DNA of 57,270 bases, filler included, from Basidioascus undulatus (Eukaryota): NCBI GenBank assembly GCA_000826855.1. It is 6 parts of 6 records of this genome, joined end to end, with 100 filler letters (N's around TTAATTAATTAA, not from the genome) between each part and the next. Parts side by side here need not be neighbours in the genome. Positions count along the whole stretch, not along the records: positions 1 to 9,488 come from JTLS01001251.1; 5 more parts are not named here. The stretch is one strand, 5' to 3'. The position numbers and the translations under genes are program-made. A model generated the notes under the pieces. It was not told the DNA's origin, ran no database searches, and worked only from the letters and a program-made list of their open reading frames with translations. Below are positions 1 to 35,196 of this stretch, in pieces; the first letter of the stretch is position 1; each line of letters opens with the position of its first letter.

Positions 1-464
1 GTGAGCTTCTGGGACACAGTCGAAGGTTGTACCACAGGCCGTTTCTCTCTACAGCCCTACAGTCAGTCTTTCTCGTTATCCTTCTCCTTCTTCTTATCAA
101 GAATGTTTTAACGCACATGCGGCGGCGGCGCCTCGACCCACTCATCGTCCTCCTCCTCCTTATCCACCCAGATCTCATGCTCCGCCTCATCATCATCGAC
201 GACCGTCATCCCGTCCGGGCCGGCCTTGCGCTTCCCGCGCTTACGCACCCGCCGCTCGTCCCTGCTCTCGCGGTCGCGGTCCCGGTCGCGCGAACGGTCG
301 CGCTTGCGGTGGTGGTGGCGCTCGCGGTCCCGGTCAGGAGAGCGATCGCGGTCGCGGTGTCGGCGCGAGGAAGAGGAGTCCTTGTCGCTGCGTCGCGGGG
401 GCGAGCGGGAGCGGGAGCGGTGGCGGTACCGGGACGAGGAGGAGGCTGCGGTAGTGTCGCCCAT
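1..464 (-). CDS. 5' part of an RS/RD-rich spliceosomal protein, probably CWF19-like 2 (Cwf19/CWF19L2); runs off the contig start
   Basis: ATG at 464, MGDTTAASSSSRYRHRSRSRSPP...RDRDR...EEEDDEWVEAPPP. The DEWVEA motif after a basic/acidic low-complexity N-terminus recalls CWF19L2. A GTGCGT intron donor lies at ~116. The diagnostic CwfJ domains are outside the window. Confidence 0.5.
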
Positions 465-808
465 CCTGTGTGTGCGTGTGTGCGTGTTGAATCGAGGGAA
501 GTGTGTGAGATGATGGTTGTGTGAAGGAGGAGGATGGGAAGGTGACCTCATTATTCGGCGTTTACTCTTCAGCTTCGCCGGTCACTGCATTTCATCTCAC
601 GGTAGCCTTAGTTAAGAGTCGCGGCCCGCGCACTCGCGATGCTCAGGAGCTGCCTTCCACCGACTGCACGCATACATCCCATCTGGCTCATTTCATCGTA
701 TATCACGCTCTAACCCAATCACAACAACCCAGAAAGCTCACAGTCCCACTCTCTTTCGCGCAGCTCCCTCCTCTCCGCCCTCTCACACGCCCCTCCATCC
801 ACCCCAGC

Positions 809-2024
809 ATGGCCGGAACCGCTTGCGCCCCTGCCTTCGCGCCCTTCTTCGGCTTCGTCCGTCCCTCCTCACCCCCTCCACCCAGCCTATCCACTTCTCT
901 GACCTTCCCCCACCCATCTCCAGGCCGGCGTCGCCTCCGCCATGGTCCTCAGCACCATCGGCGCCGCGTACGGCACGTCCAAAGCGGGCGTCGGTATCGC
1001 TGGTCTGGCCCAGTTCCGGTGCGTCCGGAGAACAGAGGGAGCTGTGGATGGAAAGGAGGTAACTTACGTGATTGGGGTGGGGTTGGGACGGAAGACCGGA
1101 ACTGGTGATGAAGGTGTGCTCAGCCTCCGTCTCCCCCCGCACACTGCGAGAGCTCACGTTTTCCTCCTGGCAGTCTCTCATCCCCGTCGTCATGTCCGGT
1201 ATCATTGCAGTGTACGGTCTAGTCGGTGCGCCTCCCCCTCATTCCCTCTTCCTCCCTCATCCCTTCTCCTCCCTCTCCTCCCCTCCTCTCCCTTTCCCTG
1301 CTCCCCCTAACCTCCTCCCCTCCCGCCTCCCCCTGCCTATCCCCCACAGTATCCGTCCTCATCGCCGGCGGTATGTCACCCGGGAACACCTACTCGCTCT
1401 ACGCGGGGGCAATCCACCTCGCCGCGGGGCTGTCGTGTGGGTTTGCCGGGCTTGCGGCGGGGTACGCGATCGGCGTGGCGGGCGACTCCTTTGTCCGCGC
1501 GTACATGTACGAGAGCAGGATGTGCGTCGCTCCTTCTTCCTTCCTCTTTCCGCTTCTCTCTTCCGTCTTTCCCTTCCCTCTGCCATTCATCTGACGCTGT
1601 GGGCGGATGAACGCAGTTTCGTCACTATGGGTACACATGCGCTCCTCCCGGCAGAGTCGAGCTCGCGTGACTGATTCAAACCCGAATGACAGTCTTGTGT
1701 CTCATCTTTTGCGAAGTCCTCGGTCTGTACGGGCTGATCGGTACGTACTCCGCGTTCCTGGGTCACTCTTGCGTCCTGCGGGGCTCACCCTCCGTCATCT
1801 GCCCTCTCCGCAGTGTACGTGTCCCGCTTTATCGTGATCTTGTATCCCAGCGCGAAACAGCCACGGCCACAGCTCACGCTGACCCCATCTCCCCTATACA
1901 GCGCGCTCATCCTCAACACACGCGTCGAGTCCGTCCACTCCCTCTTCCCCCACTCCCTCTTCTTTCTGAACACGGCCTGACTCGTTCCTCCTCCACCCCA
2001 CGCAGCGGAAGCGAGTGCTCTTAG
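809..2024 (+). CDS. VMA11: V-ATPase V0 proteolipid subunit c' (Vma11), multi-exon
   Basis: Spliced product [89 protein letters not shown]...[40 protein letters not shown]. It matches the Vma11 signatures SLIPVVMSG and IFxEVLGLYG, including the essential TM4 Glu. Confidence 0.95.
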
Positions 2025-2959
2025 TGATGCTGCGTTTGGTGGGAAAGGCCGTGGGAGAGTGCGGGCGGGACTGCGAGGATTGTTGGGGGTGGCGGCGTGT
2101 GCATTTAATATATACCTCGTGTGGGACCGCGGCGGTGCTAGACCGTCCTATATGGATGGGCAATGGTCGATGGTGAGGTAGATGGGTAGAGTGGCTGCGA
2201 GCTGGCCATAGGACGGCTCGAGATCGAGGCTCACAAGCCGGACTGTGCGGGCTGTTCGGCGTGTTCAGGGTATCAGAGTACCTGATATGGCAACGTGATG
2301 AAGGGATCGTCATGCGAGTTCAAGCTTGGAAGATCGAAGTTGCCCGCCGCCAGAAGCGAGAAGAGTTTCGCATACATTGAACATCAATCTTAGGGGTCTA
2401 TGGCCCTGTACGTAGGAGGCACACGGCCGAGATTGGCTTTATATTTTCGCAAGATGGTGCCGTGTAGCCCTCACTTGAAGGGTGTAGAATCTCTTGCACA
2501 TATTTGCTGGCGCACGCTCGTACGCTCAATAGCACTCGATAGTTCCGAATGCTACTCTCGGAGTCACATAGTCTACATTTTCTGGTACAGGCTTGGAAGG
2601 AGCGTGTTGGCCCGGGGGAGTTCGAACCCTGTCTACCCACTATGCCTGGCTAGGGTGTGGCTAGGGCACCGCCATCCGTGCCTTAGTCCTATGCTTGCCC
2701 ATGCATTGCCGCAATGCTTGCGTTAGTCCAGTTGCACTGTGTTCTTTCGCCGCCTCGGCCAAGGTGACCTTTTATTGAGGCTTTGCTTCTCTTTCTTTCA
2801 TTGTCCACCTTTGACGATCTCCAAGCTCTTCCCGCACTGCCGGCGTGCCCCTTTGTCTCTTTGTCATCCTGTCGCCTTCATCGCTATTCCCCAACTTGAC
2901 CTCAAAAAGGCTCCTCCCAAACTCTCAACCCCCCTTCCATCGCCTCACGCATAACCGGC

Positions 2960-5788
2960 ATGGTCGGATTCGGATTCTCTCCATTATTCACAGTGCCGCT
3001 CGGGCTGCTGGCCACCCAAGCACTCGCTTCTCCTTTCTCCACCGGTCAACACTCCGCCCCCGCTGAGCGGGCGGCTGGGGATATCTGCACATTCGCTGAG
3101 TACAATGCATCTATTCCGGGGAGGGTGCAGCCAACTGCTGGTCAGGAATTCGTACGTTTGCGTTTATCGTTCGTCTGGACAGACCACTCACTGGCAACTT
3201 GAACAGATTGGCTACGCTACCAATTGGAAGGTATGCTGCCAAACCATCTAACCAGAATCATTTGGTTGAATGGTCCCCTCATGTCGTATTACGCTCCAGG
3301 GCTACAGCCGACCTGGCGGGTACTCGGACGACCTGCTCAGCAAGCTCACTTCTATTCGTTACGCTTTCGCGTGAGTCTGCCTCCACCAGGCCAACTCGGA
3401 TAAGCAGGGCTTCTTTCAGTTGCTACAAATTTTGCATCAACACTTTCCCGCAGCTCCGTATCTCATTCGACCGAGCTCGACAAATACTACGTTCAACCGA
3501 CGGACTTCTACGCCGACTTTCAACGTGGTGCGTCTCAACTGTTTTGCGTGTCATCTGTTTTATTTATGAACATACGTTAGCTGACCTGAAATTTCTTCGC
3601 CATGATGTTGTCCACAGTCAACGGCCTGAACGCCGGCTGCATCCCAATTGTCTGTCTAGCATCTCCCTCGACGTCTCTCGCACTCGGTTCACCACCAGCA
3701 TACACTCACACTGTGCCTGCTGTCTCGCATATCACAGGATAAGGAGAACCTCTGCGACAACGGAGCCATACTCGCTTTCGCTCCTTACGTCGCCGCCCGC
3801 AAGGCGGATGGCTCTTGCCCCACGACGAAACCCACCGGCTGCGAGAACTCGGGCGGCTCGCAGGCTGCGCCGCGGACGTGCTTCCAGAGTCTCGACGTTT
3901 CGTCGGGCTTGAACACTACGTGTGGAGCCACTGTCCCTGGTGAGTCCAGTATATCCTCAAGCGAACCGTTTTAAGGAGTTGTTGCTGAGCGTGGACTTTG
4001 CGTGGTTCACTTTCCAGCGGCGTGCGGGTGGTACGGCTACTTCCGTAAGTATTCGGTTTTTCATGCTCAAGGCATGGTCTCTTTTTAGGGTTGATGTTGA
4101 ACTTCCACAGTGTCGGACGTCCGCAAGAAGTACTCAAACATCTCGATCATCCTCTCCATCGGCGGTTGGTCAGACAGCCAGTACGTGGCTCTTACTGAGA
4201 CTACATGCTCAGATAGATCAGCTTACTGAACTTCCGGTCTCTTGTAACCTTCTCCAGATACTTCACTGAGGTTGCGAAGGACCAGTATCGGAGCGACTTC
4301 GTCGACTCTGTCGTCCATGTAAGGCAGCGCTTCTGCACCACGACGCATGGGAAAGCTAACGCAGTCAAACCCTTCCTCTCCCATTTTTCTTCCCTTCGGG
4401 CATTCCTCTCAGTACATCAACTTCTTTGGCTTTGACGGGGTCGATATCGACTGGGAGTACCCAGGGCAAGCTCACGATGGCCAGGTGGTGAGTATCGCTG
4501 TTTACGCTTCGTCTAGTTTGGTCAGAATCATCTCATGACCATTGCCCCCTGTTTAGCTTCCAGGAGAAAAGTGGCCGAATGCCACATACGACACGGACGT
4601 GTAAGCATTCTCAGAAGTCTCTCTCCCGCTTTCTTCTGCGTCGCGGGAGAACTGAGCTCCCTCCATTGTTCTTCCTTCTTATACAGTATTCACCCGCTCG
4701 ACTCTCGTAAAGCCGACTTCGCCAACTTTGGCCTCCTGCTCAAGGAGCTGCGGGCGAAGCTGTCGGCAGAGAAGAAGATCACGCTCGCGGTTTCGGCAGC
4801 GCCGGAGCAGGCGGAGCAGTATGGCGACGCGGTCTGCCCATACGTCGACGGTATCGCGATCATGACTTACGGTGTGTAAAAGCAATAGCATGGAACTCGA
4901 GATTGAACAGCACAATGGGTGACTGTCGTCTTCTGTCTGATCATGCAGACTTCCACGGTGCTGCAAATGTCAACACCACCACGGGTGCGCACAACAACCT
5001 GTATGAGCAATACAGCGACGGCTTCGAAGGGACGGATGGCGCTGTCAGGTATGTGGGCAGGAATGCTCAAAAGGCGACCGAGCTAGAGTTGAGGAAGCGC
5101 TGACGACATGCCTTTCGGGGACAGCCTCAACTCGTCGGTCTACGGCTACGACGGTCTTCGCGGCTGGCTGAGAGAAGACGCGGGCTGCACGAAGGACAAG
5201 CTCACGCTTGGCGTTGCCTGGTACCCCAAAGGTCAGCAGCCCTTTCGGCTGGTTTTCACATTGGGAGCACTAATCATCCTTCCCCCGTCAATCGCAGTCT
5301 ACGGCCAAGTGACCGAGGGCAACACGCTCGGTTATGCTCAACCGTTCGCCGCCAACGGGACTGCCCCGGCGAACTATTGCTACGGGGACATCGTGCAAGA
5401 CGGCCAGCAGTTCAAGTTCGGACGGATCGAGAGCAACGGGTTTGTTTGCTTTTGCAACCTCATGTGTCGTCCGATCTTGTCTGACAATGTGTCCCCCCCT
5501 CCCCCTTCCCCCTCTATCCACATTCACCAGCAACATGTCATTCCTGTACCACGAAACCAACAAGACCTTTATGTCCTTCGACGACCCGCTGGCTGCGCAG
5601 ACGAAGGCTCAGTGGATAAAAGATAACGGCTTCAACGGTGTAATGATCTGGTGAAATGACCCTCCGCTCATCTCTTTATTTATTTGAACAAACCCAATTA
5701 ACCATCGACCATCTTGCGCTGTGTCGACAGGTCGCTCGAGCAGGACGACACCAAGCTTCGCCTTTCTCGCACTCTGGACGCCGTGTAA
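2960..5788 (+). CDS. Secreted GH18 chitinase, about 16 exons
   Basis: N-terminal signal peptide; IGYATNW, IRYAFA, LSIGGW, catalytic FDGVDIDWEYP (DxxDxDxE), IMTYDFHG, KLTLGVAWY, SFDD...KAQWIKDNGFNGVMIWSLEQD. GT-AG introns join these into a continuous frame ending at TAA 5786-5788. Confidence 0.9.
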
Positions 5789-6335
5789 GCACATTTTATC
5801 CTATCCACACCGAAAAACGCTTTTTCTTGGATCCGCAAACCAAATTATAGCTTACACCACTTCTTTTACACGGCGTTGGCAGTCTCAAGGGCGACTCTGC
5901 TGCGCTTGCCGCCATTCCTCCGCTCGGTTTCGACTTCCAGCCCATTGCTGCCGGAAGCAATGCCAGCGATACGAGCTCGAGTAATGCATCATCCACGGTG
6001 GGCGCTGCTCTTGCGAAGGCGGTCGGAGCGGTAAGTGCCGTAAAGCTCACCAACTGAAGGGCGACACCGCCCGACGTTGTAACTGGATCCGGCGCTCTCG
6101 GGACTCGTGAGAAGCCTGCGCACAGAGACTTTTGTAATACGATGATACCCTTATTCAAGCATGTAGTTTGTAAACGATAACTTGTCTGGACGGCTCGCCC
6201 AAGAGAGAGAACGCGCTTCTTTCACAGCTGTGGCCGAGACGAGCACTCAGACTGCGTTCGAGAACAGAACCTCATATCGAGTGAGAACACAGTTTACAAG
6301 TATCCCAGATAAACGAAATTGATCCAAAGTCCGTT

Positions 6336-7303
6336 TCAGAGCTTGCTCTTCGCCTCAGGTCCCATAGGTCCGTTCCACTCGTACTTCTGCTTCGCACCCT
6401 TCGCCTGACCAAGCCACCACCCCATGTTCTCCAAGCGGTCCGACCCGAAGAATCGTCCCACTTCACCATCCGAGCGCTCCACAACATAGAAGGGGAATCC
6501 AAACGCGCCTTGCTGGACGACCTCCTCTGCGTCCGCCTTGACGCCAGCCTTGTTCTCCTCGGACGCGGAGAGCTTGACGAGCTCGTCCAGCTCGGACTTA
6601 GAGAAGGGCGTCGGGGAGAGAGCGGAGATTTGCTCGGGGCCGATAAGCTGATCCTGCCACAGAGCTGACTGTGGTGGGGATGTTTGGCAAGGCAGCTTGT
6701 CGTACGGAACTGAAAGGCCAGAACTCACGAAAGCCTTGTCCAACGCATCCTCCAGACGGTCCGGGTACTTGTCGCGTACGACGCGCAGGAGTCGCACGAT
6801 GTTGAGCGTGGAAGGAGGGAACTTCTCCACCGGCTTGATCGTCAAGCCATGCTGTTGCGAAATCCGCTCGAGGTCTTCCCACTATAGACAGCGAGTTGGT
6901 CAGGACGCAGTTTGCACAATGGAAGGACAAAGTTCTCGCCACATACCATCCACTTCCCCTTGCTTAAAAAACAGGTTTCAGCAAGACGCTTGTATACAGG
7001 CTAATTGGTAGCTTACTTCGGAATACTGATAGGTGGCTTGTTACCGGCAGCGTTCATCACGCCGCCCAGGAAGATCGGCTTCACGCGAAGGTCTGTCAAA
7101 ACGCTTGCTCAGATGGACCTCTCAGGTCGTCTACCCCCTTGAATGCTCACTGAGGTTCCAAGCCTGCCTGTAACGCCTAAGCGCAACAAAGGCGATGTAG
7201 CTCCACGGAGCTGTGTAATAACGAGTGAGCCTTGTGGCGATGGCCCATCCCAACAGCTTCGCTCACAGACAGGGTCGACGAAGAGCGTTACGCGGGTAGT
7301 CAT
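6336..7303 (-). CDS. Glutathione S-transferase kappa / HCCA isomerase (DsbA family), peroxisomal
   Basis: Spliced DPVSPWSY (catalytic Ser), PIFLGGVMNAAGNKPP, NKGKWM, GAFGFP, FFGSDR; C-terminal -SKL (PTS1). Confidence 0.9.
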
Positions 7304-7562: not shown

Positions 7563-9488
7563 CTACACTCCTTCCAGCGCAGCTTGCATCTTCCCTGCCG
7601 CCGCAGGGCCCAGCGCGCCCCTCAACCACGCCAGTCTCGCTTCAATGTCCGCCTTCTCGAAGCACCCCGGCATCTCACGAAGCTCGCCCTTGGTCTGGCG
7701 GTACCTCGCAAAGTCGCGCACGAGCTCCTTCGACCCGGCGGATAAGACCGCGCCCGCGAGGTCCTTCCTCTTCTTCTCGTCGCTGTCCTCCCCGTCCTCG
7801 TCCCACACCGAGCTCGCGACGTGGTGCAGGGCGAGCCAGTACACGAACGCGTTGGTCTCGCGGCGGACGGAGGAGCGCACGAGCGCGCGCACGTACGCCG
7901 CGAGTACCTGCCTGTCCTGATCGAGGGGCCAGAGGAAGGGCCCGAGCGGGGCGGGGACGTCTACGGGGGTGAGGCGCACGCCGCGGAGAGCTTGTGGGTA
8001 GTCGGTCCAGACGAGGCGGCGGTAGTCGGTGGGGTAGGTGGACGCGAGGGGGAGGAGGAGCAGCTTCGCGAAGAGCGGGTGCGAGAAGGAGATGGCGTCG
8101 AAGAGGCCGGCAAAATCGGTGTAGAACTGGTAGAACGGCGTACCGCTGGGGAGGTACGGCGCTGCGGCTTGCTCGAGCGTTTGCGGCGAGGAGCGAGAGA
8201 CGAAGAAGTCGAGCAGGGCTGACATGTGCGAGGAAATGACGTCGTCCCGGAAGACTTCGCCCTCGTCCGTCGGGACGTCGCCGAGCCCATGCTCGAGCAT
8301 GAAGACCCGCATGAGCTGGAAGAGGACGTCCGCGCTCGAGGGGAGCTGGGCTGGGGAGGTGTTCGACCACACCGCGCGGGCGAGGACGAGCGACGCACGC
8401 ACGAGCTCGAGCTCGGTCGCGTCCCAGTCCGGAGGGAGCGTCTTGAAGGCGGTGGAGGAGCCGGAGTGGAGGAGCTCGCCGAGCGGCGCGGAGAGCGGCC
8501 AGGAGGGGAGGAGCGGGAGGCCGAGCGGCTTGTCGGAGTGGGCGGAGGTGGGCGGGAGGAGAAGGGTGGTTGTGGAGGGGAGAGAGGAGGGGAGCGGGAC
8601 GTAGGGACCGCAGGACGTGTCCGAGGGAGGCAGGATGGCGTGCAGGATGAAGTGCTCGATGGCAGCCGATACCCCGCTTGCCCCCTCGACCGAGACTGCG
8701 GGGCCATTAAGGCTCGCGGCAGTTGCGAGGCGCTCGGGTTCAAGACCGAGCACGCGCTTGGCGATCTTCTGTGCTAGGGCCTCGTCGCCCCGCTGAAGCA
8801 CCACGAGCGCGTCGAGCGCGAGGCGCAGCCCGTCGGGAGTGCTGAGGTCGGCAGTGGATGCAAGTGCGCCGAGTAGCGCGCTGGCGGGACGGAGAAAGGC
8901 GTACTGCCATGGCCGATCAGAAGGCGATGGCGTGGAGAGCACGGGAAGGAGTGCATTCGCGGCGTGTACGACAGCGGCAGAGACGGGAGCGGTCGAGGGG
9001 TCGGCCGATAGCGAGGTGGTGAGCCGAACGGCGGAAAGGAGGAGAGCCGACGCGCGACCGATCGTCTTGACGCTGTCGAGCGGAAGCGGCGCCGGGGCAG
9101 CCGCGAGCTCGACGATCCGCTTGGCCGCGCGCTGAGAGACCTCCTCCATGCCCTCCCTGCCCGGGCGCAGCGCCTCCTGCAGAAGCGCGCGCTCGCTCTC
9201 TCCCCCCCTGGGCGCGTTGATCCTGCAGCCTTCGGCCCACGCCGCAAAGTAACCCCACACGGCTGCTCTCAGCCCGTCCTTCGCCTCCTCCCCCTCGGCC
9301 CCCATGGCGGGCAAGACGCCGAGCGCGATCTCGTGCCACGCCTCGATCTGGGACCAAACGATCTCGTGCTCCGGCGTGGTGTTGTGCGGGTCGACCGCGC
9401 AAGTCGTCCATGTGCCGAGGAGGGCGAAGAAGGCCTGGCCGAACGCGCGCTCGGGAGCGGACCAGGTCGAGAGGGAAGACAGGTGTTT
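7563..9488 (-). CDS. RNA polymerase II-associated protein 1 (RPAP1/Rba50)-like, C-terminal part; 5' end lost at the gap
   Basis: Long open frame with FYQFYTDFAGLFDAISFSHPLFAKLLLLPL...DYRRLVW, which I recognise from the RPAP1 C-terminal region of fungal orthologs. Confidence 0.72.
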   Translation of the reverse strand, partial: KHLSSLSTWSAPERAFGQAFFALLGTWTTCAVDPHNTTPEHEIVWSQIEAWHEIALGVLPAMGAEGEEAKDGLRAAVWGYFAAWAEGCRINAPRGGESERALLQEALRPGREGMEEVSQRAAKRIVELAAAPAPLPLDSVKTIGRASALLLSAVRLTTSLSADPSTAPVSAAVVHAANALLPVLSTPSPSDRPWQYAFLRPASALLGALASTADLSTPDGLRLALDALVVLQRGDEALAQKIAKRVLGLEPERLATAASLNGPAVSVEGASGVSAAIEHFILHAILPPSDTSCGPYVPLPSSLPSTTTLLLPPTSAHSDKPLGLPLLPSWPLSAPLGELLHSGSSTAFKTLPPDWDATELELVRASLVLARAVWSNTSPAQLPSSADVLFQLMRVFMLEHGLGDVPTDEGEVFRDDVISSHMSALLDFFVSRSSPQTLEQAAAPYLPSGTPFYQFYTDFAGLFDAISFSHPLFAKLLLLPLASTYPTDYRRLVWTDYPQALRGVRLTPVDVPAPLGPFLWPLDQDRQVLAAYVRALVRSSVRRETNAFVYWLALHHVASSVWDEDGEDSDEKKRKDLAGAVLSAGSKELVRDFARYRQTKGELREMPGCFEKADIEARLAWLRGALGPAAAGKMQAALEGV

Positions 9489-9588
9489 NNNNNNNNNNNN
9501 NNNNNNNNNNNNNNNNNNNNNNNNNNNNNNNNTTAATTAATTAANNNNNNNNNNNNNNNNNNNNNNNNNNNNNNNNNNNNNNNNNNNN
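9489..9588. other. Artificial contig spacer (N-run with TTAATTAATTAA six-frame stop linker)
   Basis: 100 nt, same structure as the other four spacers. Confidence 0.98.
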
Positions 9589-10766: not shown

Positions 10767-12350
10767 TCACGGCTTGAACAAGTCCGCCTTCATGCTCTAC
10801 TCCCGCAGTCGCGGTAAGCCCGGGCGATGAAAGGGTAAAGGGGACGAGGGCGGACGAACCATTTTGCATAGCCTCGCGACGAGCCCGCCAAGCTGTACGA
10901 TAGTCGACACGCCCTCCAGAATGCGCATGTGCGTCCACCCGATCTCCTGTCCTCCTTCCCCTGCATCAGCGCCCGTCAAACTCCACCTCCCACCTCCACG
11001 ACCCCCACGCGCACGTACCCGAATAAACTCAAGCTTCGTATACTCCTGCACGCCCTCCAAGCCCTTCGCGACGCGGAAGATGGTGCTAACGATATCAACG
11101 GCCGAGTACCCGGCGTCCCAGAGCTCGTCAAGCTTCCCGAGCGCACCGTCGACGTCGCCCTTTGCGCACGAGTTCAGGAGCGCGGTGACGGTCACGGGGT
11201 GCGGCTGGTCGCAGACTTTGAAGACCGCGTCGGGCGTGACGAGCCCCAGGCCCGTGTGTACGGATTGCAGATTGTTGATCGCTTGGCGCATGTCGCCTGG
11301 AAGTGGGAAGGGGTGAGAAGGGAAAGGAAAGATGGGGTGGAGAAGGAGGGAGACGCACCTTCGGAAGTGAAGATCAGCGCGGAAAGGCCCTCGTCGGTGA
11401 CCTTAACCTGTCCCAATGACCGGTGTTTAACACCCGTTTAACACCCTCGGTCATAGGGGAGGCGTGTGTTGGGGGAAGGGGTCGGGGGAAGAAGCGCACA
11501 TTCTCAAGCTCGCAAATCTCCTTTATCCGCTTGAGGACCTCCAAGTCGCGGAGCTTGCCGTAGCGGAGGATGGCGCAGCGGGACTGGATGGGCTCAATGA
11601 TCTTGTTGCTCTGGTTGCACGCAAGAGCAAAGCGCGTCGTATTTGCGTAGAGCTCCATCGTCCGTCTCAGCGCCTGCTGCGCGCCCGCCGTCATGCTGTT
11701 CCCCCACCGCGCGGCCCTCCACTCAGTCTCCCTACACCAGCGACACACGAGCAAGTGGGAGGTGATAGAGAAGAATGAGGGGACGCACCTGTCCGCCTCG
11801 TCGAGGATTACGACCTTGTGCCGCCCCTCAGGGAGGGTGACCTTTTTCTGCGCAAACTGTTTGATCTTGTTGCGCACGACGTCGATGCCGCGCTCGTCGG
11901 ACGCGTTGAGCTCGAGCACGCCCTCCTTGTACGACGGCCCGAGCAGCGCGTGCGCGAGCGCAAGGATCGACGTCGTCTTGCCGATACCGGGCATGCCCTG
12001 TCCTCCGCCATGCAGGCAGGTCAGCGGGTAGGGGCAGCGCGGAAGGTTAAGGCGGTGGATGGTGGATGGTGGATGGTGGATGGGACGCACGGAGATGATG
12101 ATGTGCGGCATGTTCCCGTCCTCCGCGATCACCTCCAGCCGCTGGATCGTGTCCTGGTTCCCTACAATGTCGCTCAGGTGCTGGGGTCGGTACTTCTCCA
12201 CCCTGTTCGCTCCGCGTCCGTTCCTCAGTCCACCTGCTCGGAACGGAGAAGGCACGGCTCAGCGCACCAGGGCATCTCATAGTTCGAGGACGAGTCGGGC
12301 GCCTTGCCCTTGTTCAGGGCCAGGTTTGCTGGGGAGGATGTGGACGCCAT
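10767..12350 (-). CDS. RFC4: Replication factor C small subunit (yeast Rfc4 / human RFC2)
   Basis: YEMPWVEKYRP, Walker [49 protein letters not shown] motif [17 protein letters not shown]. Confidence 0.96.
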
Positions 12351-12424
12351 GGTTGATGATAGAGAGGCGATAGCAAGGGGAGAAAGTGGGGAGAGGAACG
12401 ATGAAGGCGAGGAGCAAGGCGCGT

Positions 12425-12436
12425 CCGACGCGTCGG
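12425..12436. promoter_or_regulatory. Palindromic MCB-like element (CCG-ACGCGT-CGG) upstream of RFC4
   Basis: ACGCGT at 12428-12433 inside a perfect 12-bp palindrome, about 80 nt upstream of the RFC4 ATG, with further CGCG cores nearby. Confidence 0.45.
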
Positions 12437-13141
12437 GCGCGAATGAGTTCGATGTCTGAGCGAATGCCACGCGCGTTTGCGTCTTGCCTCAGTAGCCTCT
12501 TTCGTGCGTTTTTCTGGTCCCCGACCCACATCGTTCTCAAAAGACAAGACCATCTAAGGCTTGATTGGATAGAGATTCTCTGTACAGGAATTGCAGAAGG
12601 GGCTGTTGCCTGAGCACTCAGGGTTGAGCCTGCTTACCGCCAGACTCCGGATCCCTTCCCTCTGTCGATGTTGAAGTCGACCGCACTGGGCTGTGATCGA
12701 CTGTCGTTTGCTCATAATATCCGACGACCTTACTATCCTATTCAGACTGGAGTAACCTTTCCTCATCGTACCCGAGCTGCTTGTCTTGTCGTCGATTGAT
12801 GGTCACGACTTCTCCAATCGCTCTCACCGCTCACCTCTGATGTTCTCTCTGTCGCACTCTCACCTCCTTACGATGCCTCACTGTATCAATGACTTCTCTG
12901 TCTGTTAGTTTCAACGCAGTCTGCCTCGGTGCACCGCGCCCTCCACTCGGCGAGTTGGGATGCTCATCCGCCTCGCGATCGCGGCCCGGTCATCCGGACC
13001 GCGTCTAACCGCTGCTGGCTGGCAGCCCGCTTTCATGCTCAGAGCCCGACGTGCGCTCTTCCCTCTTCAACTCCAATCCCAACCTTACCATCTTCTCAAA
13101 TCTCCTTGCCCCTGGGCCCTCACCTCACCCCCCACCTCACC

Positions 13142-14417
13142 ATGACCCTCACCCCTACCCTGACGATCCTCGAGCTCGAGGGCATGTACCCGGACGACAT
13201 CGAGGAGCGCCAGATCTTCGCCGCCCCTCCGGACCACACATACACGATAAACTTCGTCCGCGGCCAGCTCGGAACGAAGGGGAATGGCCCGCTCAGGCCC
13301 ATCTCGGAGCTGCCCGACGAGCTGTGCAGCCAGGTCGACGGGCTCATGGTGTTTAGGCATTACCTCACTGAGGAGGATATCAAGCGGTTCCCTAAGCTGA
13401 AGGTTCATTTTTTGAGCCTTTTACTGCGTTATTCTCGAAATGGAACTGAGGAGAAGAAAGTATAGGTCGTCGTGCGCATGGGAGTTGGGTACGACCGACT
13501 GGACCGCGCAGCGCTTGCGAAGCGGAATGTGACGGTGTGCAATGTGCCGGGTAAGCTAATTTCCTTCTTATTATTTCCCATTTATCTCGTCCCACTAAAG
13601 CCCTATGACCTGTTTCATCAGACTACGGCACAGCCGAAATCGCAGACCACGCGCTCGCGCTCGCGCTCACCCTCCGCCGCGGCGTCCTACTGCACCACGA
13701 GCTGCAGCGATCGACGCCCGCTGCGCCGTGGGCAGTCGTCGACACGCCGCTCGTCTCGCGCATTCAGGGCGCGACGTTTGGCGTCCTCGGCCTTGGGCGG
13801 ATCGGGACTGCCGCCGCACTGCGTGCGAAAGCTTTCGGATGGTACGTCTTCCTTGACTTGACTGTCTGCCCCTCTAACTTGTATCGAGTCTCATTTATCT
13901 GGCCCCGGAAATTCTCAACAGGAACGTGATCTTCTACGACCCCTACCTCCCCAACGGCGTCGACAAGTCGCTCGGGCTCGAGCGCGTGCGGTCGCTCGAG
14001 GACCTCTTCCGGCGCTCCACGACGCTCTCAATCCACTGCCCCCATACACGCGAGACGCGACAGCTGGTCTCCGCGCCTCTCCTCTCGCTCCTCCCGCCGG
14101 GCGCAATCCTGGTGAACACTGCGCGCGGCGAAGTGGTTGACCTGTCCGCGGTCGAGGCCGCGCTGCGGTCTGGCGCGCTGGCTGGAGCGGGGCTCGACGT
14201 CCTCCCGCGGGAGCCGATCCCCGAGCCGGCGCACCCGCTCATCCAGGCGTATCGGAACAAGGAGAAGTGGCTCGAGGGAAGGCTCGTCATCACGCCCCAC
14301 TCGGCGTTTTACAGCCCCGGCAGCTGGGACGACATCAGGACCAACTCGGCGCAGACGATGCGGGACGTGCTCGTCGATGGGCTGAGGAGCAATATCATTA
14401 CGCCGGAGACGGAGTAG
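13142..14417 (+). CDS. D-isomer-specific 2-hydroxyacid dehydrogenase, CtBP-like
   Basis: VRMGVGYDRLD, CNVPDYGTAEIADHA, Rossmann GVLGLGRIG, YDPY, catalytic R/E/H in NTARG, PREP and TPHSAFYS; three GT-AG introns. Confidence 0.92.
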
Positions 14418-14845
14418 AGAGGACGGGTTAGGCCCGATGGTCGGATATATTGGAGTTGAACCGAGAGAGCCTCGCTGTGTGATGACGCCAGGGTGCCATT
14501 CGAGGGAAACAGGGTTTGTGCATTCCGCGTTGGAGATGCTGAAATTAAGAAAGGACCCGTAAGCTCGGAGAGTAATCTTTCGACAGCTATTCAGCTTGGC
14601 GGAGATTCAGCTAGCGACTGTGCTTGAAAGATGGCTGTTGTGCATTACACAGCTGCTCCAGCGGTAGAGGGAGGCTATCTCATGTTTAAGACCATGCATG
14701 GGGAAGTTGGAATATGCGCGAAAGAGAATACGAAACAACAAACGCTCGTGCAACGGTGTTCGAGCGCAAGGCCATTGCAAACAGAAACTCGCAGAAACAT
14801 CTTCTCACCGCGCCGAGTCGTCTTCATGAGCTGTAGAGTGACATT

Positions 14846-15990
14846 TCAAGCTTTGGAGTCATGGAGATGACCCTCACAGTTCTCGCGGTAGGCCAAGGCT
14901 TCCCCGCGAAGGTACACTGCGACCGCAAGCCCGAGACCAAACGGCGTCGCGACGATAGACGCCGTGAGCAAGAGCGTCCTGGCGCTGTCGAACTGGTAAT
15001 AGAGGGCGAGATAGAGCAGCTGCCAGACCGTCAAGATCGCCACAGTGTAGAAGTACGGGAAGCGAAGGGATCGATCGATCGGCAGCCTGGGCGGAATTCA
15101 GACAGCGATGCCGGTGTCGGCCGGCTGGTTCTGCGGCCTCTCCTCGAAACGTGCGAGACGTGGAAGGGGCGTGAGAGCCCATAAGAGATGATTGTCGAGA
15201 CGGTAGGCAAACGCAGCCACGTTCGCCAAACCGCCGAAAAGGAAAGCCGGGGGGAACAGAGCCTGAATAGTCAAGTAGTCAAGTCACTGGAGGCCTGCCG
15301 CACACAGGCGGCGGAGGATAGCCCGAATTTGAGTGCGACAAACTCGAGAGTCCTAGACCGGACGTACGGTATGATCATTTGCGTGCCCTTTGAACGTGCA
15401 GGCCCTGTTTACGTGAGAGGTCAACTTCCATACGGATGGATTACAGCATCGCGAGACGTACCATCCCGGGGAGCAAGCTTACTAGAGCTTCCTTCAAGCT
15501 GGCTACGTGGTAAAAAAAGCTGCCCCGAATTGGAAGTTCAGGCCGACAAACACAATGGATCGAAAGGTGAAGCTGTCGGGCGCTGCTGTTGTCGCCCAGA
15601 CGACCGCGACCGTCCCGAGGCAAGTCACCAAGAAGAGCAGATCGGAAAGGCCGAGGGGAGAAGCGGTCGAGATTTTTTGCATATCGTGCATGAAAAACAG
15701 ACCTTCAAGCAGGGGTCGGTGTGAGGCTACAGCATGAGTACTAAAGAGAAACAGAAAGGACTCACGACCGTTTGCACGGCGGGCAACAGTTCTGTACTGG
15801 CGCCCGGAACCTAAGAGCTCACCGAGAGCGTAGCGTAGTCAGATGAACTGCCGCCTAAAGTCGCACATCAACTCACCGTCAACACTCCCGATACCCAGGC
15901 AGCACAGGCATGAGGCACCAAGTTGTCGAGAACCCAGCACGTCACAAACACAGAAAGAAAGTCCCCGTAACGAACGGTGATGCTGGTCTT
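14846..15990 (-). pseudogene. Fragmented multi-pass membrane protein of unknown family
   Basis: Several hydrophobic helix-like segments (LLFLVTCLGTVAVVW, AILTVWQLLYLALYY, TLLLTASIVATPFGLGLAVAVYL) on the same strand in different frames, with GTGAG donors. I could not build a clean model. Confidence 0.3.
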
Positions 15991-17579
15991 TTTCACCTCG
16001 GAGCACCTGAGGTGGTCAGGGCTGTACGCTTGCTGGACGGCCAGCCAGATGCGCAACGACCAGTGCGCGGTAAGCGCGGCGCCGACTGTGACGCAGAGAA
16101 ACGATCTGAAGAATTAGGCCGAGTTCCGCTTAAACGAACATGACGAGAGTGAGAGCAGTGGTGTGTGTCAGTGCGGGAGGCAGGAGGCAGAGAGGCGATC
16201 AGAAGGGGGGTGACGGTCAAAGGTCAAGGAGGATTTCAGAGGCTTGCGGGTCGAGGATCCGCGGGGCGGCAGGGTAGGGCGGTCACGGTCGCGGTCTGCG
16301 GCCGCGAGAACATATCGTTCGGAGACAATTTGTGTGAATGTTTCTTGGGACTTTGGCTGCAGAAGTCTCTTAACACGACCGGGAAGCAGGTGTCACGCCG
16401 CTCGAGTCAAGACCAGTCCATCTTGCGTTTATGGCCGGGACGAACTCTTGCCAGATGCCATGAATTGATTTAGGAAATTTTAGAAATAAAAGTAGCAACA
16501 TCTGTTCTTTTTGGATAGGTGAGGCAGAAGGAGAAGGGAGAAAGCGGCGCGACGCTTGAGGGGTGAGTTCTGGCTGCGAAAAGCCTGTCGTGGTCGTGTT
16601 CGCATACTGGTAATCAGTCAAGCTGACGTCGAGATTGGTTAATGAACACTACGTTTGGTAGACCTCAGCTCCAGAAGACCAAAGGCTCAACATGATGCTG
16701 AAAGTACGCTTGGCAGACGGTTTGTGTTCAAGCCCACGGCATTCTCCGTCGTTCACAGCTCTCAGGCGGCCTTCCGTATTTCGCGTGGGATAGCTCCAGT
16801 AAATGTATTTCCCATATAATGTGACAGTGGCAAACGGTTCCTGAGCATCTGGGTGGGAAATCCTCACACACACCGAGGAAGCAGGCCTGGGCAACGGAGG
16901 TCATAGAGGTCCGATGTACCCATAAATGGTTCACTCGATATATTCCATTCCACCGGTATGACGCCCATCCCTGGCTTTCGGACTGAGGGAGCGAAAAACT
17001 GCTCATTTGATACAGAGGCAGAAGTCGTCGAGGGAGTGTCCTGCGCTATCAGGGGGCACCGAGGTGGTTGAGGGTGGCTGGGTGAGCTTGGGGGACAACT
17101 CTACTAAAGTATGGAACTCAAATATGAGCTTAAGGAAGAAGATCGGACACGATGGTAGCCGCGACATCGCTGCGCGCAGACCAACACGCAGCACATGTGC
17201 GGCTAGCGAAAATTTTTGGAGCGCTAGCAGATTCACCTCTTGGTTGAAAAGAGATTTCCATTGTATTAAAATACATTGTATTCCCTTCCTACAAAGGTAT
17301 CAATTTCAAACCACAGCAACGGCTGTGTAAAAGAGGAGCTGGCATGCACTGGCAAGGGGCAAGCCCTCGTCGACAGGCTGCCTCGCATTCTCAACAGTCG
17401 TCACGAGCTTTCGCTCCACTTCAGTCTGAAAACATAACCAGGCTCATAACAACGGCCAGGGTATTGCTCCTATTCTCGCGGTCTGAGGAGGACAGATGCT
17501 CTGCCACCACACCTACAACTCGTCCCGGCCTGCCTGCGGTATCCTCCCCTAAGATCTGGATGTAAGTCCCAGACACGCC

Positions 17580-19192: not shown

Positions 19193-20082
19193 CGCGCTGT
19201 AGGAAGTTGACGAGGACTGCGACGAAGAGCGCGGCGCAGATGAGGACAGGTCCGAGGATCTGGTCTGTGTGAGGGAAAGGCGAAGGGGAGCGGTCAGCGG
19301 GTGTACGGATCGCCGGGCTGTCTTCGGGCGCCGTCTCGGAGCCTCATCCCAACAGCAGCGGTCTGCTCCGAGCCCCCATATGACCATCCAGCACAGATTC
19401 CCAGCTGGAAATCCAATAATCCCCTACGACGATCTTCATTCCAAACTTGAGCAAGCCCAGCCCCAACCCCCAACCCCACGTCGCTCGCTCGACTCACCGA
19501 AGTGCCCCGGATCCCTTCTACGAATCATGGTCAAGCGCTTCTGGTATACCCACCAGCCGTAGACGAGCGTGATGGCGCTGATCACAGCGTAGACGATGCC
19601 GAACGCGCGGCCGACGGGGTCGTGGGCCGAGTTGTAGAGCGCGAGGGCGAGGGTGCCGAGCAGGATGGAGACGTTGATGTACGAGACCCAGGTGCGCTCG
19701 TTGGCGAACCAGACCTGAACAGTCCCAAATCCTCCTATTAGCCTAGAGTCAAGGAAAGGAGGAAAGAAGGAAGGCGGGTATGGGTGAGCAAGCGCACCTT
19801 CGGCTCGACGCGCACAGGCGTCGCGACCTTCTTGGGGATGCGCACGCGGATGTGGCCCGTCCCGTCCGGGCGCGGGATAGTCGTGTAGCGCGCGTCGGTC
19901 TCCTCATCGGGGTAGTCGTCCGCGCGCTTGGCCTTGGCCCGGCGCGCGGGGTTGGTCGGGAGCAGGGAGAGCGCGGAGGGCGAGAACTTTGCGGGGAGCG
20001 TGTCCTTCAGGCGCGTGTACAGCGACGGGCCGCCCTGCTGCTGCTGGGGCTGCTCAGGGGCGGGCGTCTGGGAGGTCGACAT
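19193..20082 (-). CDS. VTC1: Vacuolar transporter chaperone Vtc1-like (DUF202); last exon lost at the gap
   Basis: PVRVEPK-VWFANERTWVSY...YQKRLTMIRRRDPGHFD-QILGPVLICAALFVAVLVNF; three TM helices. Confidence 0.88.
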
Positions 20083-26460: not shown

Positions 26461-28546
26461 ATGGACGACGCGCACCGCAAAAAAGTCGTCCTCCTCGGCC
26501 TGCGGCGGTGCGATTCAAACCCACGTTCTCCCATCTGTCTAGCTCGAGCAAGGCACTGATAAGTGCGGTGTGGTGGTGCCATGCAGGTCCGGCAAGACCT
26601 CCATCCAGCGCGTAGTGTTCCACGGCCTCCAGCCCAAAGAGACGCTCTACCTCGACAACAATGTTCGCACGTCCGTGGAGAATATCGAGTGCGTCCCGGT
26701 CCTTCCCCCTCCTTTCCTGGCTCCGGGTGCTGAGGGTGGGGACGCGAGCAGCGCGTTCGGTGGACTGCAGCTGTGGGACACGCCCGGGCAGGTGGATATT
26801 GAGCGGGTGGATGTGGATTTGGCGGAGGTGTCGACGATTGTGTTCGTGATCGACGCGCAGGTGCGTCTTCCTTTCCCCCTCGCCTTCTTCCTCCCCTTTC
26901 CGGCTTCTCCCTTTCCTCCGTATCCTCTTAGAGCTCGCCGGGACTGGGATGACTGAGGGATGGTGGGAACAGGACGAGTACTCCCGCGCCCTGACTCTCC
27001 TGCACCACACCGTCGTCAAGGTGTACGAGGCGAACCCGGCCGTCCACTTTGAGGTGTTTGTCCATAAGGTGGACGGGCTCAGCGACGAGTACAAGCTCGG
27101 TACGTCCTCTTCCTCTCCCCCTCCCACTCGTTTCCCCTGCCCTTCCCTTCCCCTACCTTCGACCTTCGACCTCCGATCTACCCCCCCTCAACCCACCCAC
27201 TTCCCGATCTTCCCATCTCCCCCCTCTGTCCCCCTCCCGCACCCCTTCCCCCCCCCTCTCCCTGCCGCAAACATACACCCGCATCCCACCCTTTTGTCCC
27301 AGAATCTGCCGAACGCTCGCTGACCCCCGCCCACCCCCAAGACACACTCCGCGACATCCAAACCCGCATCCTAGACGAGCTCTCCGACGCGTCGCTCGAC
27401 ACGGCGATTCACATCTCGTACCACCTCACAAGCATCTACGACCACAGCATCTTTGAGGCGCTGTCCAAGGTCACCCAGAAGCTGATTAGACAGCTGCCGA
27501 CGCTGGAGAATCTGTTGAATGTTCTTTGCGCGGTGCGTCTTCCCTCCTTCTCACCTATCCTTATCCCATCCCCTTCGATGTTCAGTGCGATCTTACTGGG
27601 AGAACCGCGCGGAGCTGATGAAGGGGCGGCGTCCAGAACTCGGGTATCTCCAAAGCCTTCCTCTTCGACGTCCGCTCGCGCCTCTACATCGCGACCGACT
27701 CGAGCCCCGTCGACACCGCCACGTACGAGGTGTGCTCTGACGCGCTCGACGTGTTTATCAGGTTCTCGCAGCTGTATCGGTGCGCTCTTCGTTTTTTCCT
27801 TCCCTTCTCACCCGACTTCCCATCCGCACCTGCCTATCCCTCCCCCCCCCACCGTCCTCTTCCTCTCTTCCACACCCCCGGAGCCCCGACCCGCCTTCTC
27901 TCTTGCCTCTTCTCCTTCCCGCTTCCCCTTCACTCCTTCCCCGCTCTTCCCTTCCTCATCCTTCCCTTCCCACCTTCCTCTGCCTCTTCCCCTGCCCCCT
28001 GCCCTCCCTCTTCCCATCCCACTCCTTCCCTTCTTCTCGTTCTTTCCGTTACCCCCTCCCTTACCCCTCCCCTCCTCCGTCCTCCTCTTCTCGATCTCCC
28101 TTTGGCCACTGACGCCCGGATGCGATTACACAGTGCCTCGCCCCTCCCCTCCTCTTCACCACCCTCCTCTTCACCACCCTCCTCCGACCACGATCCCGCC
28201 TCCGATCCCCACACCCAAAACGGCCACGCCCCACTTTCCTCTTCTTCCTTCTCTTCCGTTCCCGCCCCGCAGGCGTCCCGCTACGCCTCCGGCGCCGTGA
28301 GGCTCGCGCACGATACGACTATTGCAAGGTGGCAGATCTACGGGTGCGTCTTCCTCGGCTCTTTCACTCGGGTGCGCAGAGAGCGGGGGAAGTACGGGAG
28401 CGTAGGAGGGGGAAATGGGGAAATGTGGGAGAGAGGGAAAATGAGGGCTGATGCGGGATTGGGGATCGGGGGGGAAAAGGGATTTCATGCTCATCGCGCT
28501 TCTAAGAAGCGAGACGTGGGATAAGTACAAGGGGAGCATTGATTAT
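26461..28546 (+). CDS. GTR2: Rag GTPase RagC/D (Gtr2); 3' end lost at the gap
   Basis: [18 protein letters not shown] (G1), WDTPGQ (G3), [24 protein letters not shown] (G4), [17 protein letters not shown] (G5), roadblock domain [19 protein letters not shown]. Confidence 0.95.
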
Positions 28547-29951: not shown

Positions 29952-31218
29952 CTAAGCGTGCACCTCCCTCCCCCAGCTGATCCCGCCACCGCCGCTACCG
30001 CCGCCCTCCCCATCCCACGGCAGGCGTCCCGGATACCGCTCGCCATTCTCGGGGCACCATTCGAGGAGGCCCGCGAGCTCGGGCGCAGTGAGGTGGTACG
30101 AATGCGCGCGCCAGAAGGGGTTCCGGTTGAGGCGCTTGGTCGATAGAGGCGGGTGGCAGCCGTACGGGTCGCGCGTGTAGGGGACGTACCCAAACTGGCG
30201 CTGGAGGAGAAAGCAAGCATGCAAGCATGTGTCAGCTCCACGTCAGACGTGACAGCAAGCCGAGCGCACCTCGCCATCCCAGCTCTGCGTCTTGCCCGTC
30301 TCGTCATCCACACCGACGTACTCCCACTGGCCCGCCCACCCAATCGCTGTCCGGTGCAGCTCCTCGAACCGCGGCTGCTTCATCCCGTACCCCACGACGG
30401 TCACCCGGGCCGGGTAGCGCCCCGCGACCTCGCGGAAGCGCGCGAGCGAGAATAGCAGGTTCTGGAACGAGTCGAGCGCGTGATTCTCGGACGTCGCGCG
30501 CGGGAAGGGGAACGGGGAGGGAGGGAAGAGCGAGAGGGAGGAGGCGAGGAGGTGATAGGACGTTCCTTCGTTGAGGAGCGACGAGGGGCGGGTCTGGCCG
30601 CTGTGAAGGGAGGAGGGAGTTTAGAACGCGTGGGCGCTAGGAGGAGGGAGTGGTACGCACCCACTGAAAACCAACAAGCTCTTCTCATCCGCCAAGTTGA
30701 GCTCCACCCTGTCCTCGCACCGCCATCAGCACCGCTCTCCCACCGCCTAGCCACAGCAGACTCACCCCCTCCTGATATGCTGCACGAAAGTCTTCACCGC
30801 CCCGCCCCGCTGCATATCCTCCAGCACCCACTGCTCGTCGTCCTCCTCCGCCTTGGCGGCGTCCCCGCCCTTCCAGATCGCGTGCCCCGCAACGACGATG
30901 AGGTGGTCGAGCTCCGCCTGGGCCTTGGGCAGCGTGGCGACGATGGAGGGAGGGGTGGTGCGGGTATCGAAGAGGGTATTTTGGAAGGATGAGATCCAGT
31001 ACTTTAGGTTTAGAAGGAAGGAGAGCGAGAGGAGCGCGAGGAGGAGGAGGACCGCAGCGTTGGTGAGGCGAGATCGGGCTGTGGGTCCACCTCAAGTCAG
31101 CGGCCTGCTGCAAGAGGGTGAGGGGAATGGAGCGCCGCTTGCCCTGCCAGAAGTTGTGGTTGATTCTGGACTTGGATACTGATGGCCGACGCGGGCCGCC
31201 AGCGTACGTGGGCAGCAT
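29952..31218 (-). CDS. Conserved YOR238W / SPAC57A10.07-like (DUF218-related) protein with an N-terminal TM anchor
   Basis: RSRLTNAAVLLLL.., HLIVVAGHAIW, LLVFSGGQTR, ENHALDSFQNLLFSLARFRE..YPARVTVVG..KQPRFEELH, DPYGCH..L..KR..RNPF. Confidence 0.8.
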
Positions 31219-34989: not shown

Positions 34990-35196
34990 TCAATGCAGGA
35001 CGTACAAGTACCCTCGGTCGCCTTGACGTACGCTCACATGGCGCCCTGAGAATTGACGGTGCTCCAGTGGGAGAGTTGTTACTTGACACGTCGACGCGGA
35101 GCTGGCCAGAGGGGACTGCGCGGGCTCGACGGGCGAAGTTGTCGCGAAACCGGCACTGAAAGCGGGTACGGCGAGGGCGGCGGTGATGGTGCGCAT
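34990..35196 (-). CDS. Possible first exon of a small secreted protein
   Basis: Signal-peptide-like MRTITAALAVPAFSAGFATTSP followed by a GTAAC donor. The remainder is not resolved. Confidence 0.28.
   Translation of the reverse strand: MRTITAALAVPAFSAGFATTSPVEPAQSPLASSASTCQVTTLPLEHRQFSGRHVSVRQGDRGYLYVLH

Follow-up and report, generated by a model that had tools for sequence, protein, structure and literature searches.

Can a single nucleotide serve as an exon in a gene for a V-ATPase subunit? The Vma11-type gene of Basidioascus undulatus raises this question at the end of TM4, where the codon for a conserved valine seems to be assembled from three exons, the middle one of which would consist of nothing but T1814. 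We analysed this locus within a stretch of 57,270 nucleotides (six joined parts of assembly GCA_000826855.1), which is referred to as the window as a whole. In our view, T1814 is likely a constitutive one-nucleotide exon between two complete introns, which would be recognised by intron definition and probably be removed sequentially. That the transcript is spliced in this way, that the base is included constitutively and that the two introns leave in sequence is what we infer from the splice signals, from the uniqueness of the splicing path and from the fit to homologous proteins.

The gene model and its introns

The gene for the proteolipid subunit c' (Vma11-like) extends over 809..2024 on the plus strand, where all of its exons and introns lie. 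The predicted coding sequence of 495 nt is distributed over ten exons and comprises 164 codons, i.e. 164 residues, plus a TAG stop. Exons 1 (809-856), 2 (924-1018), 4 (1174-1225) and 5 (1350-1521) are accompanied by two micro-exons: exon 3 (19 nt, 1095-1113) encodes (R)PELVMK, residues that are conserved in homologues, and exon 6 (14 nt, 1617-1630) encodes (I)FVTM, comparable to ESRIFVTMVL in the homologues P0001 and P0003. Both micro-exons are required for conserved residues, and therefore very short exons are, according to the model, spliced in the same transcript. Exon 7 (48 nt, 1693-1740) starts TM4 with the conserved Glu and ends ...CTG ATC G, where G1740 opens the Val codon. The proposed one-nucleotide exon T (1814..1814) would supply the middle base of this GTC codon, and exon 9 (27 nt, 1902-1928) begins with its third base, C1902, and continues with ALILNTRV…. 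The last intron (77 nt, 1929..2005) reads GTCCGT … CTGAC … CAG and is followed by the last exon (2006..2024), whose 19 nt contain the TAG stop.

When exon 5 was compared with solved yeast chains, subunit c' scored 52.7 bits (E 2.5e-13) and subunit c 38.2 bits. Exon 5 alone matched PF00137 (ATP-synt_C), and the top named database matches of the gene were annotated as 'V-type proton ATPase proteolipid subunit 2' from Cryptococcus and Kwoniella (73-77% identity). Thus the label VMA11 holds, and a predicted Vma11-type proteolipid that is nearer to c' than to c is supported. Environmental proteins without names reach up to 80% identity to exon 5. The 164-residue model aligns over its full length with homologues of 160-167 residues, to which it is ~79% identical, and the Glu in its E-V-L-G-L-Y-G motif is preserved. 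Against P0003, P0004, P0006 and P0008 no internal gap was necessary, with 129 identical positions in the case of P0003.

Between exons 7 and 9 two complete introns can be read. Intron A (73 nt, phase 1, 1741-1813, plus strand) has the donor GTACGT at 1741-1746, the branch-like motif CTCAC at 1784-1788 and the acceptor CAG at 1811-1813; its branch A lies 26 nt before the 3' end and its final 22 nt are 82% pyrimidine. Intron B (87 nt, phase 2, 1815-1901, plus strand) starts with the same donor hexamer at 1815-1820 and ends with CAG at 1899-1901, and its branch-like CTGAC (1879-1883) is located 19 nt before the end, with CTCAC at 1873-1877 as a second candidate. An earlier note on this DNA had placed two complete introns at just these positions around T1814, and all of its coordinates proved correct. 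The seven uncontested introns of VMA11 are 60-124 nt long, contain CTNAY 17-39 nt before the acceptor in all cases and carry G at donor position +5 in six of seven; the introns of the gene are GC-rich (57-67% GC). Since introns A and B share the full set of signals with the seven uncontested ones, they resemble ordinary VMA11 introns. The donor at 1741 matches the generic donor consensus at 6 of 9 positions, where donor strength was judged on seven introns of one gene and on a generic consensus. A filter for introns with coding flanks, applied across the window, delivered 17 candidates without a donor consensus.

A common origin of introns A and B by duplication was considered and rejected: the two show no clear sister-intron likeness (a score as high as theirs was reached in 31 of 500 shuffles), and neither of them has a second copy within the window. 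The predicted RNA structure over 1731-1911 is not unusual (z = -1.05). Another peculiarity of the gene concerns intron 2 (1019-1094, plus strand), which ends with AAG instead of YAG. Its branch-like CTTAC is found 28 nt upstream of the 3' end, and its tail is purine-rich: 27% of the last 22 nt are pyrimidines, which sets it apart from the other VMA11 introns.

Upstream of VMA11, on the minus strand, an open frame rich in Arg, Ser and Asp (108-581) contains RSRS… and RDRDR… repeats and gave no Pfam match. A tRNA search of positions 1-6000 found none. Further genes were called by Pfam on raw open reading frames of both strands between 6339 and 57087. On the minus strand these are a weak DSBA-like thioredoxin (6339-6881, 26.1 bits at a cut-off of 25.6 bits), RPAP1 (7566-9536), an RFC small subunit (10800-12258), DUF202 (19439-19903) and a PH-domain protein (52666-53301), while 2-hydroxyacid dehydrogenase (13878-14414), Gtr1/RagA (26543-28297) and PI3K C2 (56247-56690) are encoded on the plus strand. 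The window also contains 440 N in several runs, the first five of which begin at 9489, 9545, 19075, 19131 and 28650.

Splicing paths and the protein they predict

If G1740, T1814 and C1902 are joined, the resulting GTC (Val) leads to …LYGLIVALILN… at the end of TM4, nine residues past the conserved Glu. The identity of the base matters as well: at position 1814 T alone gives Val, while A, C and G would give Asp, Ala and Gly. We enumerated the in-frame, stop-free paths from exon 7 to exon 9 that use GT-AG or GC-AG introns, with an internal exon of 1-30 nt where two introns are involved. None of the 28 one-intron paths preserves the conserved spacing; the nearest ones employ donor 1745, which yields I-G-T-A and thereby one additional residue, or the GC donor 1733, which is two residues short. 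Exactly one residue between LYGLI and ALILN results from only two of the 67 two-intron paths, and the second of these combines C1851 with the GC donor GCGAAA and encodes Ala. Among all 28 and 67 paths, the one with T1814 as an exon is the sole canonical GT-AG path with conserved spacing. Of 70 homologues, 58 cover the site (the remaining 12 are truncated or mispredicted and stand outside this count), and all 58 read LYG[LM]I-[VI]-[AS]-[LI] without a single indel, with Val in 48 and Ile in 10 of them.

Scoring the alternative splice models with a profile of 42 full-length homologues gave a comparable picture. The one-base-exon model obtained 276.7 bits and beats its best rival, the donor 1745 model (268.4 bits), by 8.3 bits. 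Lower scores resulted from the GC donor 1733 (261.2 bits), from skipping of T1814 (258.4 bits), from retention of intron B (258.0 bits) and from no splicing after 1693 (253.6 bits). The claim that a codon split over three exons restores the TM4 consensus is thus borne out by the unique canonical path, the top profile score and the spacing in 58 of 58 homologues. That skipping of T1814 shifts the frame at the end of TM4, as had been noted as well, was confirmed: without this base, an aberrant protein of 216 residues is predicted. On the sequence level the one-base-exon reading as such is supported by the uniqueness of its path, by the gap-free alignment and by the best profile score.

The frame of exon 7 stays open through intron A, intron B, exon 9 and the last intron up to the same TAG (1671-2024, plus strand, 117 codons). 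Consequently, unspliced or partly spliced RNAs would escape premature-stop surveillance, and this open frame could mislead gene predictors. In the protein collection, no close relative of the read-through frame (1671-2021) was found.

Chance, relatives and rival explanations

The short motif by itself is not above chance in the window: AGNGTACGT occurs three times (0.9 expected) and YAGNGTRNGT eight times (4.5 expected). The two other matches of AGNGTACGT are located at 31201-31209 (plus strand) and 35026-35034 (minus strand), and inspection by eye of ~320-350 nt around each revealed no sign of a one-base exon. Likewise, plain AG-N-GT is found in 12,004-16,136 of 100,000 simulated introns of 161 nt. 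For the full internal set, we demanded YAG-N-GTRNGT, a CTNAY branch located 10-48 nt further upstream and a length of 45 nt or more for each half. Among 100,000 simulated introns this set arose 12 times when their composition followed the other seven VMA11 introns and 122 times when it followed the whole stretch, or 6 and 59 times, respectively, if N is T. Since this was a first-order simulation with little training sequence, the figures are orders of magnitude. As hexamers, GTACGT (35 occurrences vs 22 expected) and GTACTC (34 vs 28) are weakly enriched in the window. Near sites with a branch motif and YAG, GTACGT is found six times upstream and once downstream, and GTACTC three times upstream and four times downstream.

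Among the collections searched there was no close relative; the best values were 80% identity for exon 5 and 37% for the neighbouring RPAP1-like gene, for which Agaricomycetes provided the best named matches. A metagenome scan delivered two distant loci, and the CAG-N-GT arrangement is present in neither. In one of them, the fungal genomic contig L001, an intron lies three codons further upstream, within the Gly codon of LYG, and the other, an AT-rich protist contig (L002), has no intron at the site. Further hints came from a library of representatives at 50% identity, which contains many open reading frames that read through in-frame introns. The E-x-x-G-x-Y-G motif is present in 31 of the 148 representative frames listed, and most read-through frames with this motif carry an insert directly after LYG, as in L001. 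In P0207, the insert is in phase 2 of the Ala codon next after Val. P0164 has an in-frame insert of 17 residues between LYGLI and VSLVMN that begins with G-T and ends with V, and it appears to contain a single GT…AG intron of 51 nt that interrupts the same Val codon in phase 1. This suggests that intron A shares its position with an intron of a second fungus, intron B being the addition.

Taken together, the read-through frames (P0164, P0207 and ~15 others) point to three or more other intron positions no further than five codons from the site (phase 2 of Gly, phase 1 of Val and phase 2 of Ala), which suggests that the end of TM4 is a local hot spot of intron positions. Two Vanrija proteins deserve mention at this point. 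The C-termini …VCTALSSRSS of P0039 (Vanrija pseudolonga) and …VCTASSSRSL of P0046 (V. albida) resemble the +1 frame of DNA that encodes GLYGLIVALI, and these models are probably mis-spliced just upstream. Judged by back-translation, Vanrija probably lacks an intron at the Val codon.

How do other explanations compare? A single intron of 157 nt from donor 1745 to acceptor 1901 would replace Val by Gly-Thr and turn the internal CAG-T-GTACGT into a coincidence. Its donor GTACTC (1745..1750, plus strand) lies within the overlapping GTACGTAC, and the earlier note had already named it as the alternative that gives I-G-T-A; with acceptor 1901 it does so in frame, with one residue too many. The path is free of stops, represents the top one-intron model and is the likely choice of most gene predictors. 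Furthermore, weak donors are in use in VMA11, since an uncontested donor without G at +5 (GTACAC) is found once elsewhere in the gene. However, besides its deficit of 8.3 bits, this path requires a gap that is seen in 0 of the 58 homologues covering the site, and its donor, which has T at +5, agrees with the consensus at only 4 of 9 positions, whereas the overlapping donor 1741 does so at 6. The resulting intron would also exceed all others of the gene (60-124 nt) and would leave an internal signal set unexplained that simulation delivers in 12-122 of 100,000 introns. We thus regard this explanation as improbable. Small, too, is the probability we give to a mixture of products, in which inclusion of T1814, its skipping (1740 joined to 1902), use of donor 1745 and retention of intron B occur side by side and an inefficient or regulated step sets the yield of c'. 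Plant VPS55 forms isoforms with and without its one-base exon, as passages of PMC8831610 describe, and when a one-base exon was created artificially in potato invertase, 33% of the transcripts lacked it (cited in PMC4674806). In VMA11 itself, intron B (87 nt) has no in-frame stop, so that its retention preserves the frame, and the frame that follows skipping of T1814 is open for the 216-residue product; as the three terminal introns have a total length of 237 nt, several aberrant products would remain in frame. Against a mixture stand the strong GTACGT at both donors and the fact that every product without inclusion of T1814 disrupts TM4. In addition, yeast Vma11 is a single-copy, essential ring subunit, and wasteful splicing would therefore be costly.

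Least probable of all, and in our opinion very improbable, is a decaying duplicate or a local assembly error with a functionless apparent double intron. Unusual Cys substitutions in TM4 (LCLIFCEV instead of LILIFAEV) might point to decay. However, ten intact exons, canonical signals in nine introns, the conserved Glu and the gap-free identity to homologues argue against it, and a random error in the assembly would not make two complete introns. A [D1,2] stwintron, in which G1740 and T1814 would become part of a donor GTGTAC, was rejected because the frame shifts: two coding bases would be removed and the coding sequence would shrink to 493 nt (1 mod 3).

A proposed mechanism and known one-base exons

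Returning to the one-base exon as preferred reading, we propose that one Val codon is interrupted by two independent short spliceosomal introns of 73 and 87 nt, with a single base between them. Intron definition is usual for short fungal introns, and A and B would each be recognised across itself. Recognition of the intron B donor involves ~1812-1820, a stretch that takes in the AG at which intron A ends (1812-1813). If this overlap prevents both sites from being engaged simultaneously, the introns would have to be removed in succession. Such sequential removal is plausible, while neither order is favoured by our observations, and the same mRNA would arise whichever intron goes first. In the mature mRNA the codon would read G1740-T1814-C1902, i.e. 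GTC.

One might go further and speculate that constitutive inclusion of the single base takes place in a housekeeping gene that is both essential and highly expressed, that an older intron in phase 1, at the position which P0164 appears to share, was joined by intron B one base further downstream and that strictly sequential, recursive-like removal is thereby forced. We consider this extended scenario rather doubtful. If true, it would offer a natural, frame-critical substrate and a snapshot of intron positions that move by one nucleotide. Even without such a history, a real one-base exon at this site would mean that each c' ring subunit, the product of a core housekeeping gene, depends on its inclusion. 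With acceptor and donor one base apart, it would represent a demanding natural test of the intron-defining spliceosome. From a practical perspective, the locus would be a clear example of how gene predictors can mis-model micro-exon-rich basidiomycete genes, in this case by giving TM4 either an extra residue or a C-terminus that is out of frame.

The earlier note had called such exons very rarely described. They are indeed a rare kind, but RNA data have revealed cases elsewhere: plants have them in APC11 and VPS55, Fusarium has one in CYP621A, and 13 are annotated in Coprinopsis cinerea. Since one-base exons are thus known from both plants and fungi, the gain from a further one is incremental. 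In our literature search, no paper turned up that describes such an exon for a V-ATPase proteolipid gene.

According to passages of Guo and Liu (2015, PMC4674806), the single-nucleotide exon of Arabidopsis APC11 was shown by cDNA and GFP reporters. Like the VMA11 site, it comprises one base between two complete U2-type GT-AG introns, is critical for the frame and was missed by annotation, and its authors proposed the same model of intron definition and successive removal. In contrast to plant APC11, the present case concerns a fungal host and a V-ATPase subunit gene and is predicted from sequence. The 1-nt micro-exon of plant VPS55, which is sometimes alternative (Yu et al., 2022, PMC8831610), shares with VMA11 a strong donor (the well-conserved GTRAGT in VPS55) and a location in a gene for a membrane protein, and as reported in parts of this article, its omission changes predicted transmembrane helices. 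However, this exon is found near the N-terminus and gives rise to isoforms with and without it, whereas the VMA11 exon would be constitutive. [D1,2] stwintrons of filamentous fungi are another related system: passages of PMC5587772 describe adjacent or nested U2 introns that are spliced consecutively, and orthologue intron positions that are one nucleotide apart. Yet a stwintron keeps no internal base in the mRNA.

Among fungi, a long-read annotation of C. cinerea lists 13 one-base exons in 13 genes (PMC12230235), whose names do not occur in those text passages and supplement files of this source that were searched. C. cinerea is, like B. undulatus, a basidiomycete with short introns and many micro-exons, and omitted one-base exons break gene models there, as the same passages state. 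In Fusarium, a one-nucleotide exon of the P450 gene CYP621A is conserved in 20 orthologues and covered by 18 SRA reads, according to sections of Nelson and Syed (2026, PMC12940212). This example resembles VMA11 in several aspects, as both are fungal, both concern the middle codon base of a conserved residue, both show an over-long apparent intron and both rely on an argument from homologue spacing. In contrast to the VMA11 case, CYP621A belongs to an ascomycete, is rarely expressed and has been confirmed by reads (PMC12940212). Thus the VMA11 site would be a well-supported, albeit unproven, further case of the exon kind that is known from APC11, VPS55, CYP621A and C. cinerea.
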